This document shows, one piece after another, positions 3,496 through 45,292 of a stretch of 64,000 bases of DNA (its first letter is position 1; each line of letters starts with the position of its first letter). The position numbers and the translations under genes are program-made. The notes below the pieces were generated by a model that was not told where the DNA came from, ran no database searches, and was given only the letters and a program-made list of their open reading frames with translations. The stretch comes from Oscillospiraceae bacterium (GTDB taxonomy: Bacteria > Bacillota > Clostridia > Oscillospirales > QAMX01): contig SVLQ01000008.1 of assembly GCA_015067825.1 (NCBI GenBank), forward strand, positions 777 to 64,776, read 5' to 3'.

Positions 3496-3540
3496 AGTCA
3501 AAAGGGTAGACAAAGCGCAGAGTCCTTAGGGACTCTGCGC

Positions 3541-3690
3541 AGCGAAATAAATCCCTTACGGGATTTGTGAAATGCACTTCGTGCGTGAAATTCGCTTACA
3601 GCGAGTGAAATGCCTGCGGGCGTGAGGGGATTTATTTCATTTCCCGTCGAGCAGGGGGAGATATTTCACATTTTGCCAAGCCGAGAAAGA
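3541..3690. repeat. GTGAAAT-plus-hairpin array, copy 1 (partly degenerate)
   Basis: GTGAAAT at 3567, 3585 and 3605, with variant GTGAGGG at 3622. Spacers gcac-ttc-gtgc, tcgct-tac-agcga and gcc-tgcg-ggc are flush hairpins. Inverse heptamers ATTTCAT at 3634 and ATTTCAC at 3663. Confidence 0.6.
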
Positions 3691-3871: not shown

Positions 3872-4048
3872 CAACAATGTCTTCGGGGCAGGGTGAAACT
3901 CCCGACCGGCGGTATAGTCCGCGAGCGCTTTTGGCGCAGGATTTGGTGCGATTCCAAAACCGACAGTATAGTCTGGATGAAAGAAGACAAAACAGGCGTT
4001 TTCGTCGGTTTTTGCACCCGGAGCATCGTTGTTCCGGGTGTTTTTTGC
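3872..4048 (+). promoter_or_regulatory. FMN riboswitch (RFN element) with terminator expression platform
   Basis: Near-consensus RFN core: cttcggggcagggtgaaactcccgaccggcggtatagtccgcgagc ... ggatttggtgcgattccaaaaccgacagtatagtctggatgaaagaag. It is followed by the hairpin cacccggagcatcgttgttccgggtg plus TTTTTT (about 4012-4047), directly upstream of ribU. Confidence 0.9.
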
Positions 4049-23769: not shown

Positions 23770-25140
23770 CTATTTACCAACGCAAAAGCGCTCAAATACG
23801 CGGTCTAAAATTTCTTCGTTCACGGTCTGCCCGGTGACTTCGCCGATCGCCGAAAGCGCGGCTTCGGCGTCGACCCAGGCGATATCGGGCGTAAATCCCG
23901 CTGCCAGCGCGTCGGCGGCGTTTTGAGCGGCCTCTGCCGCGCGGGAAAGGGCTTCGGCTTGGCGGCGGTTGGTGATCACGCTGCCGTCGTGGCGCACGCG
24001 CTCTGCCGAAAGTGTTTGGGCGATGCGCGCCTTCAGATCCTCCAGCCCCTCACCGGTTGCGGCCGACAAAATAACGGCGTCGGCAAACAGAGGCGAGGCG
24101 GTTCTGTCGAGGCGCCACTCCAAGTCGTTTTTGTTGCAGACGGCAATCACGGGCGCTTCGCACGCTTCCAAAAGCGCCAAAACCTCGCGGTCGGCGTCGG
24201 AAAGCGCCGCACTCGCGTCAAAAACGGCGATCACGAGCCCGGCGTGCTTCGTCGCTTCACGCGTGCGCTCGATGCCAAGGCGCTCCACCGTTTCGGCGTC
24301 CTCGCGGATGCCGGCGGTGTCGATCAGCCGCAGGATCACCGAGCCAACCCGCACCGATTCCTCTACGGTATCGCGCGTCGTGCCGGCCAGATCGGTGACG
24401 ATCGAACGCTCGAAGCCGACAAGCGCATTTAATAAGGAAGATTTTCCGGCGTTGGGCTTGCCCACGATCGCCGTGCGCACGCCCTCGGTGAAGAGCCGGC
24501 CGTCGGCAAACGACGAAGCCAGCCGTGTGAGCCGTGCGGCGGCGTCGCGGCAGTCGGCCTCCGCGCCCGAAAGATCCGGCGGCTCCACGCCCTCGTCGGT
24601 GTAGTCGATGTAGGCGGTAAAATGCGAGGTGAGGTCGAGCAATATATTATATATGGAAGATAACTCGTCGGACAGCCGTCCCGAGAGCTGCGCGGCGGCG
24701 TTCTCAACGCCCTCGGCGGTCTCGGCGTGGATCAGATCCGCCACGGCCTCGGCTGCCGAAAGATCGAGCCTGCCGTTTAAAAACGCGCGTCTGGTGAATT
24801 CACCGGGCAGCGCCTGCCGCGCACCGGCGGCAAAGCAGAGCGCGAGCACGCGGTCGAGCAGGCGGAGACCGCCGTGGCATTGCAGCTCCACGCTGTCCTC
24901 GCCCGTGTAGCTTTTCGGCGCGGCAAACGTGAGTGCGAGGGCCTGGTCGAGGATCACGCCGTTAAAATCGACGATCGTCCCGAATTGCGCAGAGCGCGGC
25001 GGACATTCCGAAAGCAGCTTGCCGCAGAGCGGGAAAAAGATCCGGTCGGCAACCTCTCTGGCGCGGCTGCCGGAGAGACGGATGATGCCGATGGCGCCCG
25101 TGGCGGGCGGTGTGGCGATGGCGGCAATGGTGTCGGTCAT
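23770..25140 (-). CDS. mnmE: tRNA modification GTPase
   Basis: ORF 23770-25437 trimmed to MTDTIAAIATPP (ATG at 25140), 456 aa. G1 motif GKPNAGKSSLLN and the C-terminal CVGK tail are typical of TrmE. Confidence 0.9.
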   Translation of the reverse strand: MTDTIAAIATPPATGAIGIIRLSGSRAREVADRIFFPLCGKLLSECPPRSAQFGTIVDFNGVILDQALALTFAAPKSYTGEDSVELQCHGGLRLLDRVLALCFAAGARQALPGEFTRRAFLNGRLDLSAAEAVADLIHAETAEGVENAAAQLSGRLSDELSSIYNILLDLTSHFTAYIDYTDEGVEPPDLSGAEADCRDAAARLTRLASSFADGRLFTEGVRTAIVGKPNAGKSSLLNALVGFERSIVTDLAGTTRDTVEESVRVGSVILRLIDTAGIREDAETVERLGIERTREATKHAGLVIAVFDASAALSDADREVLALLEACEAPVIAVCNKNDLEWRLDRTASPLFADAVILSAATGEGLEDLKARIAQTLSAERVRHDGSVITNRRQAEALSRAAEAAQNAADALAAGFTPDIAWVDAEAALSAIGEVTGQTVNEEILDRVFERFCVGK

Positions 25141-25284
25141 GGCGATCCTGCTTTCTCTGACGGTTTCTGGGGGCATCTCTCCCCAATTTACAATTATACC
25201 AGTATTTCTCCGCCTTGTCAAACCGTGCGGCTGCGGGCGGTGCAAAAAAAACGAAAAATTTTTGAGAAAAAAGCAAAAAAACAC

Positions 25285-25313
25285 TTGACAAATACCCTTG
25301 TATCTAGTATAAT
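25285..25313 (+). promoter_or_regulatory. Consensus SigA promoter (TTGACA-17-TATAAT)
   Basis: TTGACA at 25285-25290, 17-nt spacer, TATAAT at 25308-25313, about 510 nt upstream of rpsJ. Confidence 0.7.
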
Positions 25314-25319
25314 AATTGA

Positions 25320-25822
25320 GCGCCATCATGGAGCAGCGATGATGCGGGAGGTTGCCACTCATCGAGTGGGTTTTTCCGCGGAGTATGTCCGAAAGAGCAT
25401 GGCCGATCCAAATAGGATCTGCGATGTTTCTTTGCAATCGGGCGGTTGAGAATTCTTCTCTTTAGGATCCAGTGTGCGCAGAGAGCGTCTGAAAAGACTT
25501 CCGTCAAGCGGGGAAGTGTGCCGGTTTGCGGTATAACCCCTGTGGAAGTGTGCTTGGGAGCTGTCTGTGCAGTCTGACCAGCCGGTTTGCAAGACGTAGA
25601 TCGCTCAGGCGATCTGCATCGTTGAAACCGGTTATTCTTATGTCAGGGCGTGAAACGCTCGGATGGGTAGTTAAGAATCGAGCAGGGTTTTCTCCGTACG
25701 CAGCCTGAGACATTGGCCTCAGACAGATCACCGGGCGGGGGCCGCGAACGCGGTCATCTGGATGGCGACAAAAAATAAGGTAGTCCGCCCGGACGTACGA
25801 CAAACTAGGAGGAAGTACAAAC
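25320..25822 (+). other. Long structured 5' leader or unassigned ncRNA upstream of the S10 operon
   Basis: About 500 nt without a credible ORF between a consensus promoter and rpsJ. Many local hairpins, including an early terminator-like hairpin ccactc-atc-gagtgg plus G TTTTT at 25355-25375. Confidence 0.4.
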
Positions 25823-26134
25823 ATGGCAAAAGCAGAAAGAATCCGGATCAGATTAAAGGCGTTTGATCACCAGCTGATCGACCAGACGGCAGAACGCATC
25901 GTCGAGACCGCGACCCGCACCGGCGCGAAGGTCTCCGGCCCCATCCCGCTGCCGACCCAGAAAGAGATCGTCACGATCCTGCGTTCCCCGCACGTCAATA
26001 AGGACAGCCGCGAACAGTTCGAACGCAGAACCCACAAGCGCCTGATCGACATCCTGAACCCCACTCCGAAGACGATCGAAGCGATCAAATCCTTCGAACT
26101 TCCGTCCGGCGTGGAAATCGAAACCAAGCTGTAA
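25823..26134 (+). CDS. rpsJ: 30S ribosomal protein S10
   Basis: 103 aa, conserved S10 sequence ([10 protein letters not shown]…), first gene of the S10 operon. Confidence 0.97.
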
Positions 26135-26249
26135 GCCCCGCACTTAAAAATTGCTTGTTTCCGGTCTTGTGCGAAAGTACAGGGCGGGTCAAGTTGGCAC
26201 CGAACGGTGTCAACCAATAACCTATCATATGAAAGAAGGAAAACCAAAC

Positions 26250-26885
26250 ATGAAGAAAGCGATCATCGGCAAAAAAGTCGGCATGGCGCAGATCTTCGAT
26301 GAAAACGGCAAGGTTATTCCGGTGACTGTTATCGAAGCCGGTCCCTGCGTCGTGACTCAGAAGAAGACCGCGGACAAAGAGGGTTATGACTCTGTCCAGC
26401 TCGCGTTTGACGACACTCTGGAAAGAAAGCTCTCCAAGGGCGAACTCGGCCACCTCAAGAAGGCCGGCGTTGCTCCGAAGAAAGTTCTCAAAGAATTCTG
26501 CCTCGAAGACTGCAGCGCGTTCAACGTTGGCGATGTCCTGAAGGCCGACGTCTTCGCCGAAGGCGACCGCGTCGACGTGACCGGCATCACCAAAGGTAAA
26601 GGCTACGCCGGCGTCGTTAAGCGCTGGGGCCAGAGAATGCAGCAGCACACGCACGGCGTTGGCCCTGTCCACCGCTCGCCGGGTTCCATGGGTGCTAACA
26701 CCGACCCGTCGCGCGTTATGCCGGGCAAGAAGCTCGCCGGTCACCTGGGTGTGGCTCAGCGCACGATCCTGAATCTTGACGTTGTCAAGGTCGATACCGA
26801 GCTGAACCTCATCGCCGTTCGCGGCGCGATCCCGGGTCCCAAGGGCGGCATCGTGTTCCTCAAGAACACGTCGAAGACGCGCTAA
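26250..26885 (+). CDS. rplC: 50S ribosomal protein L3
   Basis: ORF 26151-26885 trimmed to MKKAIIGKKVGMAQIF (ATG 26250). Conserved L3 sequence. Confidence 0.95.
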   Translation: MKKAIIGKKVGMAQIFDENGKVIPVTVIEAGPCVVTQKKTADKEGYDSVQLAFDDTLERKLSKGELGHLKKAGVAPKKVLKEFCLEDCSAFNVGDVLKADVFAEGDRVDVTGITKGKGYAGVVKRWGQRMQQHTHGVGPVHRSPGSMGANTDPSRVMPGKKLAGHLGVAQRTILNLDVVKVDTELNLIAVRGAIPGPKGGIVFLKNTSKTR

Positions 26886-45001: not shown

Positions 45002-45076
<75 letters not shown>

Positions 45077-45109: not shown

Positions 45110-45292
45110 CAGTGAAATTCGCCTTCGGCGAGTGAAATATGGCTTCGCCATGTGAAATAGCGACGCTGTGAAATATTTGCTGCGCAAATGTGAAGAGGCG
45201 AATTTCATTTCACATTGCGACCAAAGGGAGCAATATTTCACAATTCACGAAGTGAATGATTTCACATTCGGCAACACCGAATATTTCACTAA
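45109..45292. repeat. GTGAAAT/ATTTCAC heptamer-plus-hairpin array, copy 2 (complete)
   Basis: GTGAAAT at 45112, 45132, 45152 and 45168 (GTGAAG at 45190). ATTTCAC at 45207, 45235, 45259 and 45283. Every inter-heptamer spacer is a flush self-complementary hairpin. Confidence 0.8.

Follow-up and report, generated by a model that had tools for sequence, protein, structure and literature searches.

Organization of the mnmE-rpsJ spacer

This study concerns the spacer between mnmE and rpsJ, the gene for ribosomal protein S10, on contig SVLQ01000008.1 of an Oscillospiraceae bacterium. Coordinates refer to the stretch of 64,000 nucleotides (nt) of that contig that was analyzed, hereafter called the window. 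mnmE lies on the minus strand and starts at approximately 25140, and rpsJ lies on the plus strand and starts at 25823. The intervening spacer of 681 bp agrees with the 680 bp given in an initial annotation made from the sequence alone. That annotation had also reported a perfect SigA/sigma-70-type promoter, TTGACA-17-TATAAT, at 25285-25313 of the plus strand. The site matches the consensus at 12 of 12 positions, and it is conserved in relatives: the -35 box is invariant, the -10 box and the spacing are conserved, and the distance from the boxes to the first conserved bases (GCGYCAYC) is kept. The position of the promoter places the predicted transcription start at about 25318-25320, and the untranslated leader RNA would extend for approximately 503 nt to the rpsJ ATG. 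The 5′ part of this leader belongs to a known family, S10-Clostridia (Rfam RF03136). What is new is a segment of approximately 380 nt inserted downstream, which has a conserved predicted fold and matches no Rfam family.

The Shine-Dalgarno sequence (SD) AGGAGG (25807-25812) and the rpsJ start codon (25823-25825), both on the plus strand, are conserved in the alignment of relatives. The plus strand at 25320-25830 is predicted to fold much more stably than shuffled sequence (z = -4.98), and more stably than the minus strand (z = -3.33). The sense strand of the leader is G-rich and C-poor (31.8% G vs 22.5% C). The leader region occurs in a single copy within the window, and a repeat or mobile element was rejected on this basis. 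Between the promoter and rpsJ, no terminator was found besides the P1 hairpin described below.

The minus strand carries another perfect TTGACA-17-TATAAT promoter (25221-25193), which has a TG extension and points toward mnmE. It stands back to back with that of rpsJ, 64 bp away, and relatives have retained its -10 and -35 regions (TTGTCAA/ATTATACCAG block). Chance alone would give 0.5 +/- 0.6 promoter-like sites, and the region contains two.

The 5′ part of the leader is an S10-Clostridia motif

The whole window was scanned with Rfam at gathering score, and 25100-26300 was scanned at E<=10 with 4227 families. The S10-Clostridia ribosomal-protein leader RF03136 matched at 25331-25406 with 45.1 bits (gathering score 35.1; E=1e-7 for the region), in the 5′ untranslated region of rpsJ and on the same plus strand. 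The only other families to appear in 25100-26300 at E<=10 were caiA and IRES_Bip, which lay far below their thresholds and represent noise. Models for riboswitches, T-box, OLE, GOLLD, HEARO, ROOL, raiA, RNase P, tmRNA, SRP and 6S gave no match in the same region at that cutoff. The initial annotation, which had found no signatures of RNase P, tmRNA, SRP or T-box, agrees with these scans but overlooked the S10-Clostridia match. It had recommended a search of this type, and the match that emerged explains only 76 of the approximately 500 nt rather than the whole region. RF03136 is a purely computational candidate. It builds on the S10 motif that Yao et al. 2007 (PMC1913097) described in Firmicutes, and Eckert and Weinberg 2020 (PMC7247131) drew attention to it.

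The model in Rfam spans 81 nt and ends at P2. It aligned P1 with high posterior probability and P2 poorly, and P2 was defined by comparison with basal forms of the motif. Comparison of 80 species-level loci gave the basal order as GCGAUGA, P1, GGAGnAUGUCCG, a short loop, AAUCGGGCG, 2-4 bases, SD and ATG. In the window, the part of the leader that belongs to the family (25331-25445) contains the conserved strings GCGAUGA, GGAGUAUGUCCG and AAUCGGGCG together with the P1 and P2 helices of RF03136. The features present are thus the two hairpins, the linker GGAG-AUGUCCG and the 3′ strand AAUCGGGCG. P1 (GCG-GGAGG...UUUUCCGC; 25344-25379, plus strand) follows the Rfam alignment and includes, at the base of the helix, a pair that changes from G-C to U-A in 5 sequences. 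P2 (25387-25443, plus strand) pairs GUCCG (25387-91) with CGGGC (25439-43) and is extended by P2a, in which AAAGA (25392-96) pairs with UCUUU (25429-33) beneath a variable apical hairpin. Both sides change in 3 of the 5 pairs of P2a. All long-form relatives carry RF03136 at the 5′ end of the leader (13 relatives, 39.9-47.5 bits) and show no further Rfam match.

A folded insertion separates P2 from the Shine-Dalgarno sequence

The insertion point lies exactly between P2 and SD, and the distance from P2 to the ATG is 378 nt. All elements described here lie on the plus strand. The 5′ strand of P3 (25444-25459) begins directly after P2 and pairs with 25680-25696, closing a central domain of 220 nt with a duplex of 12-16 bp in every lineage. 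Within this domain, a long and variable arm A (25460-25577) is capped by the conserved hairpin P5 (GGGG-AAG-UGUGCCG...CGGUAUA-A-CCCC; 25510-25540). It is followed by arm Hx (25581-25632), which has a base helix formed by GCCGGUUU (25581-88) and AAACCGGU (25625-32) and an inner hairpin at 25597-25616. The remainder of the domain is module C (25633-25679), the most widely conserved part of the insertion, which consists of a U-rich strand, an invariant GAAAC (25652-56) and YGG. No single consistent hairpin emerged for the GAAAC region, where each of two possible registers fits only part of the lineages.

P4 starts where P3 ends. Its 5′ strand CGUACG (25695-25700) pairs with a second CGUACG (25794-25799) located 7 nt upstream of SD, closing a 3′ domain of 90 nt. 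P4 is 99% paired in the alignment, with a change from C-G to G-U in 5 sequences, and shorter forms of the leader have a homologous hairpin, CCGUACNCAG...GAGUACG. The 3′ domain (25704-25793) contains P4a (25705-09/25718-22), P4b (25731-38/25785-92) and P4c (25740-45/25750-55), and its internal loop holds GAUGGCG (25761-67). This sequence pairs with CGCCAUC (25321-25327) at the extreme 5′ end of the transcript, and the pairing crosses P4 and P4b. Two of its positions covary (CG:15/UA:3/UG:2 and CG:13/UA:2): one C-G pair becomes U-A in the window, and another becomes U-A in the relatives L111-L114.

Three of the pairings proposed in the initial annotation are borne out by these comparisons. The stem agatcgc-tcag-gcgatct (25598-25615), within arm Hx, changes on both sides in 5 of 6 pairs. 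The pairing of ccgggcgg with ccgcccgg is P4b, and it is compensated in other lineages as CCGGACGG/CCGTCCGG, ATAGGCG/CGCCTAT and GGGGCG/CGCCCC. The long-range pairing of CGCCATC with GATGGCG is supported by the two covarying positions and by the strand-swap test described below. A fourth stem, ttcttat...taagaa, may form, but in some lineages only. Two further pairings were considered here. A local hairpin, GAGAA-UUC-UUCUC (25448-60), was dropped in favor of the long-range P3, which covaries. Pairing of GGGCGG (25440-45) with CCGCCC (25785-90) would be compatible with the other helices, but true compensatory changes occur only with the local partner of the latter, 25731-38. In one long-form relative (L133:1080-1110), the 3′ domain contains GUGAGGAGGACAAAUCAUAUG, an SD-like string followed by ATG. 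It opens an open reading frame (ORF) of only 5 codons and probably reflects chance.

Covariation and strand-swap tests

Structure was tested in a 20-sequence MAFFT alignment in which 91 proposed pairs were counted. Standard pairs filled 88.9% of cells, a proportion inflated by derivation of the structure from the same sequences, compared with 40-48% when the 3′ partners were slid by 1-3 columns. Both sides changed in 28 pairs, compared with 12-21 in the slid alignments and 19.6 in shuffles, of which 1 in 500 reached 28. The covariation score was 0.180, compared with 0.116 in shuffles (0 of 500 reached 0.180). An alignment of related rpsJ upstream regions had been proposed in the initial annotation; conservation and the both-side changes are its outcome.

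Because the structure and the covariation count share their sequences, we added a test independent of the alignment, in which each 5′ strand was combined in turn with the 3′ strand of its own lineage and with those of the others, and the duplex energy was calculated. Cognate strands paired better than swapped strands for the 5′-end pairing with the 3′ domain (p=0.0004), P2a (p=0.0005), and P3, Hx and P4b (each p<5e-5). For P3, the cognate advantage also held in a set of 37 lineages that covered all size classes (p=2e-5). Examples of the variants are AAAGA/UCUUU, GAAGAAC/GUUCUUC and GAGGAGC/GCUUCUU in P2a; GAGAGU/GCUCUC, GGGAUU/AAUUCU and GGAUG/UGCCAG in P3; and CCGGGCGG/CCGCCCGG, CCGGACGG/CCGUCCGG and AUAGGCG/CGCCUAU in P4b. 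Separate minimum-free-energy folds for each lineage gave a common architecture, and the alignment consists of invariant blocks between variable arms. Leader identity to relatives is 0.52-0.69, only slightly above the identity at four-fold sites in rpsJ, rplC and rplD (0.46-0.65), which indicates that constraint is concentrated in blocks and helices rather than distributed uniformly.

The insertion occurs in discrete size classes among Clostridia

A scan of a genome collection with S10 gave, among the matches listed, identities of <=80%, and closer relatives were obtained through exact-protein look-ups. These revealed the long-form leader in at least 10 further lineages whose S10 is 81-99% identical to that of the window. 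Long-form leaders measure 431-526 nt from the predicted start to the ATG. The gene upstream varies among them (mnmE, an MGS-domain gene, TP_methylase, a cupin gene or parB), and the leader always adjoins rpsJ. Strains of the same species differ at 2 positions in the leader, compared with up to 9 in a short stretch upstream of the promoter. In L091-L095, whose S10 is 99% identical, the mnmE-rpsJ spacer measures approximately 885 bp vs 681 bp, and approximately 200 bp of additional G+C-rich sequence separate mnmE from its promoter. Over the spacer of these relatives, gene callers place ORFs of 160-221 amino acids (aa) that are not conserved and lack Pfam matches.

Of the 80 species-level loci, 52 have a recognizable motif, and in these we determined how far the 3′ strand of P2 lies from the ATG. 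In 24 loci (Negativicutes, Peptococcia and others) the distance is 16-22 nt, which constitutes the basal form. In another 24, from Oscillospiraceae, Acetivibrionales, Clostridiaceae metagenome-assembled genomes (MAGs) and Acetobacterium, it is 142-200 nt, and in 3 it is 254-274 nt. The 378 nt of the window is the largest value in the sample. An insertion thus occurs at the same point in about half of the sampled motif-bearing Clostridia species. In related loci, the 81-nt Rfam model ends 170-270 nt short of rpsJ, and for about half of the sampled species with the motif, the curated model seems to cover no more than the 5′ third of the conserved element.

The medium forms share the plan of the window: P2 is followed immediately by a closing helix and a domain in which a hairpin is combined with a U-rich strand and GAWACRCNCGG. 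In the Acetivibrio type, the closing helix pairs CGACAAG-UCA-CUGUACA with UGUACAG...CUUGUUG; in Oscillospiraceae it pairs CUGAACUG with CAGUUCGA, and its 3′ strand ends 28-53 nt before the ATG. Medium forms of Oscillospiraceae have a small hairpin, CCGUACCCAG...CUGAGUACG, in place of P4 and the 3′ domain. In all classes, the last helix ends between a few nt and approximately 35 nt before SD.

Module C links the size classes. In other classes, an nhmmer profile of the insertion of the window's clade detected module C in front of rpsJ: in L199 (E=2e-10), in L026 (E=2e-6) and, more weakly, in L022, L131, L128 and L007. A pattern scan of metagenomes for module C gave 99 matches, of which 4 had features of an S10 leader at first screen and a fifth (L199) was recognized through nhmmer. 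All 5 of these real homologues lie in rpsJ leaders; the other 94 matches showed no similarity beyond the pattern itself. These matches identify module C as homologous across the size classes, as judged by sequence.

In summary of its relation to RF03136 (PMC7247131, PMC1913097), the leader of the window resembles the family in that its 5′ part scores above threshold, shares the conserved strings and P1/P2, and lies upstream of rpsJ. It differs from the basal forms in that P2 itself is extended and 378 nt of conserved structure, rather than 16-22 nt, precede the ATG. The curated model differs also from the shorter extensions of 140-270 nt in about half of the sampled species, which lie outside it as far as the scans show. 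The papers that describe the motif (PMC7247131, PMC1913097) do not mention the insertion.

A model for the extended rpsJ leader

We consider it probable that the region acts as a single cis-acting, autoregulatory 5′ leader of the S10 (rpsJ) operon, in which helices seal off the insertions. On the model of other ribosomal-protein leaders, the S10 motif (P1 and P2) is presumed to bind a ribosomal protein encoded in the operon and thereby to mediate feedback. In basal leaders, the presumed protein-binding motif adjoins SD, and the bound protein could hinder binding of the 30S subunit, as in many ribosomal-protein operators. Such direct adjacency is a property of the basal forms rather than a curated criterion for the family, and it is absent from the window. 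P3 and P4 may re-establish it in the folded RNA. Since P2, P3 and P4 follow one another head to tail without gaps and P4 ends 7 nt before SD, the two inserted domains would form closed side-branches and the fold should return SD to a position adjacent to the protein-binding motif. The bound protein could in that case repress translation of rpsJ in the same way as in the short forms. The predicted pseudoknot would tie the 5′ end to the 3′ domain, and it could stabilize the global fold and protect the 5′ end. The conserved junction with module C (GAAAC) probably has a function of its own beyond folding, given its sequence conservation; it could serve as a second binding site, make a tertiary contact or provide some other input.

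A variant of this mechanism would operate through P1. The 5′ strand of P1, GGGAGG, resembles an SD, and its 3′ strand, UUUUUCC, can pair with GGAGGAA of the real SD. A change in P1 might therefore sequester the ribosome-binding site.

Several considerations weigh against the model of a single autoregulatory leader. We infer the start site, read-through and processing of the transcript from the locus, and coaxial stacking and the proximity of P2, P3 and P4 are a deduction from secondary structure. Because it crosses P4, the pairing of 25321-27 with 25761-67 could be either a pseudoknot or an alternative, mutually exclusive state. Pairing within module C is possible in two registers, each of which fits only some lineages. 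P2, most of P4 and P4c are invariant and hence uninformative on covariation, and the proportion of paired cells carries the inflation mentioned above. All carriers of the long form are uncultured Oscillospiraceae or Clostridiales MAGs. Finally, no ligand is reported for any member of RF03136 (PMC7247131, PMC1913097).

Alternative explanations

The 140-400-nt structure between the S10 motif and SD may instead constitute an undescribed and widespread RNA domain of Clostridia, built on the module C junction and P3 with extra arms and a pseudoknot in this clade, that responds to a ligand or effector of its own. It could bind a second ribosomal protein, NusB-S10 (at a BoxA-like site), other Nus factors or a small molecule, or it could modify RNA polymerase for processive antitermination through the S10-spc-alpha cluster. 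It would then contribute a separate regulatory input instead of behaving as a sealed spacer. We regard this only as a tentative possibility. Its appeal comes from module C, in which 16 of 47 positions are invariant in long forms and which is conserved across Oscillospiraceae, Acetivibrionales, Clostridiaceae MAGs and Acetobacterium, beyond the needs of a spacer. The leaders contain U-rich strings that resemble BoxA, namely GUUCUUUGCAAUC in some lineages and GGGCUUUAAUAU in Acetivibrio, and a BoxA preceding rpsJ has been proposed for gamma-proteobacteria (PMC5725501). The case for BoxA (core GYUCUUUNANNA) is weak, however: one BoxA-like string, UCUUU at 25429-33, is base-paired with covariation in P2a, and the second U-rich stretch does not keep a BoxA core from class to class. 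No riboswitch or other family of Rfam matched the insertion at E<=10, and there is no indication of a ligand. A search for mimicry of ribosomal RNA by sequence, made against the 16S, 23S and 5S RNA of E. coli, yielded scattered matches of 9-11 nt (best E=0.24), nothing beyond chance. If the domain did have its own ligand or effector, the rpsJ leader would be a multi-input regulatory RNA of approximately 500 nt, among the largest bacterial cis-regulatory RNAs known.

A less likely explanation is that the insertion is evolutionary baggage, consisting of old insertions and hairpin expansions that lack a function of their own and are kept folded and closed by P3 and P4 to spare the S10 motif and the ribosome-binding site. 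In keeping with this explanation, the sequence and length of arm A, Hx and the apical parts are free to vary, whereas their closing helices covary; the two strands of arm A have only 2 invariant positions out of 64 and none out of 36; and the size of the insert changes in discrete steps among lineages. It does not readily account for the conservation across genera of module C, the P5 hairpin and the strands of the pseudoknot, or for retention of the insertion in about half of the sampled Clostridia species.

Transcription attenuation as the main mode of control, with the long RNA secondary, appears quite improbable. In such a scheme, the hairpin at 25355-25369 and the following GUUUUU would act as an early, factor-stimulated terminator like that responding to L4 and NusA in E. 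coli, whose S10 operon is partly controlled in this way (PMC10931766). A terminator-like hairpin had been noted in the initial annotation, and the sequence ccactc-atc-gagtgg followed by GTTTTT is indeed present at 25355-25375, with a U5 run that is invariant in all long-form lineages. The role as a terminator did not hold. One such site is the chance level (1.7 +/- 1.5 expected) and the stem has 6 pairs only; moreover, it is the apical part of P1 of RF03136. The U-run is the 3′ strand of lower P1, where it pairs with GGGAGG in the Rfam alignment, and this pairing explains its conservation. Other members of RF03136 have AACUUCC or AAUUUCC in its place. On these grounds, a terminator at 25355-25375 was dropped as a feature of the family. 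Attenuation would also leave 380 nt of conserved downstream structure unexplained.

An independent or processed, trans-acting non-coding RNA gene, which the initial annotation had offered as one of its two options, is very unlikely. The region is large and structured, has a strong promoter of its own and the folding z-score given above, and gene callers leave it empty or call unconserved ORFs. Yet no terminator precedes rpsJ, the region is present once in the window, and covarying helices, namely P3 and P4 together with the predicted pseudoknot, join its ends into one fold that reaches from the S10 motif to within 7 nt of SD. The element was found only upstream of rpsJ, as all 5 real matches among the 99 of the metagenome scan illustrate, and all size classes share a common insertion point. 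The other option of the initial annotation, a ribosomal-protein leader of unusual size and L4 type, fared better: a large ribosomal-protein leader behind a consensus promoter is what the locus presents, but its recognizable part is RF03136 and no relation to the E. coli L4 leader was detected.

Finally, a protein-coding function can be dismissed on either strand: ORFs of 60-106 aa exist (including one of 106 aa on the minus strand at 25504-25824, besides small ones on the plus strand) and gene callers predict minus-strand ORFs of 160-221 aa in some relatives, but their position, frame and length differ in every lineage, their similarities mirror conserved nucleotide blocks, indels are not multiples of three, substitutions follow helix covariation and Pfam gave no matches at E<=1.

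Comparison with other ribosomal-protein leaders

Leaders of ribosomal-protein operons are usually viewed as small operators of 50-170 nt. The S10 leader of E. coli, through which L4 mediates translational repression as well as transcription attenuation, measures 172 nt, and leaders of its type are confined to gamma-proteobacteria and contain a NusA-dependent attenuator hairpin. The leader of the window resembles it in occupying the same position in the operon as a long, structured 5′ untranslated region, and the hypothesis of autogenous control is borrowed from E. coli, in which L4 and NusA act on the S10 operon through attenuation (PMC10931766). Unlike in E. coli, the terminator-like element of the window is not conserved in the RF03136 family, and no relation in sequence or structure was found between the two leaders. 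A family-conserved hairpin with a U-run, as in an E. coli-type attenuator, is absent; the U-run here is part of P1.

Distant segments of RNA also pair in the operator of the E. coli infC-rpmI-rplT operon that is recognized by L20, where a long-range pseudoknot forms near the ribosome-binding site. The two systems differ in operon, protein and sequence, and in the window the intervening RNA is itself a conserved multi-domain fold. A third comparison is with autoregulation through BoxA and Nus factors, known for suhB in E. coli and proposed for rpsJ in some gamma-proteobacteria (PMC5725501). S10 is identical to NusE, and the leader has U-rich BoxA-like strings in an element upstream of rpsJ. Unlike in BoxA systems, these strings are either paired with covariation or not conserved between classes.

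The leader thus represents a known motif into which domains supported by covariation have been inserted, in the manner of the expansion segments of ribosomal RNA, and which has become three to five times larger. A ribosomal-protein leader of 500 nt with a pseudoknot would be unusual, although we infer the mechanism itself rather than observe it. Together, the short, medium and long forms offer a natural series in which to examine how a cis-regulatory RNA accommodates added structure or turns it to use, and they could aid the search for the ligand or ligands of the S10 leader.

A second element in the rpsJ-rplC spacer and other RNAs of the window

The spacer between rpsJ and rplC (26135-26249, 116 nt) contains a second conserved, structured element at 26153-26222, directly upstream of the rplC SD. 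Its order is GCUUGUUUCCGG, a variable hairpin, CGGGUCAAGUUGGC, another variable hairpin, GUCAACCAAUAACC and SD. Compensatory changes replace GUUGGC..GUCAAC with GUCGGCGG..CCGCCGAC in L131 and with GUUCAC..GUGAAC in Clostridium and Acetivibrio. Of the 136 rpsJ loci retrieved, 73 matched a simple pattern for the element, among them Acetivibrio and Clostridium MAGs, and Rfam gave no match to it at gathering score or at E<=10. The element may be an undescribed leader of the rplC/L4 cluster. Its presence points to control of the S10 cluster of Clostridia at several places; if it serves as an operator for L3 or L4 and the downstream genes, the rpsJ leader may control mainly S10. In L128-L132, Oscillospiraceae with medium-form leaders, the rpsJ-rplC spacer has grown to 117-321 nt, and long G+C-rich hairpins precede its conserved element, GGGUCAAGU...CCAAUAACC. 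The second leader therefore also shows lineage-specific expansion.

Elsewhere in the window, Rfam identified two copies of Gut-1 RNA (RF01706), at 3540-3616 (74.9 bits) and 45110-45179 (67.1 bits). One copy lies just upstream of a flavin mononucleotide (FMN) riboswitch (3875-3992, 116.4 bits), and the other lies just downstream of a tRNA (45002-45073).

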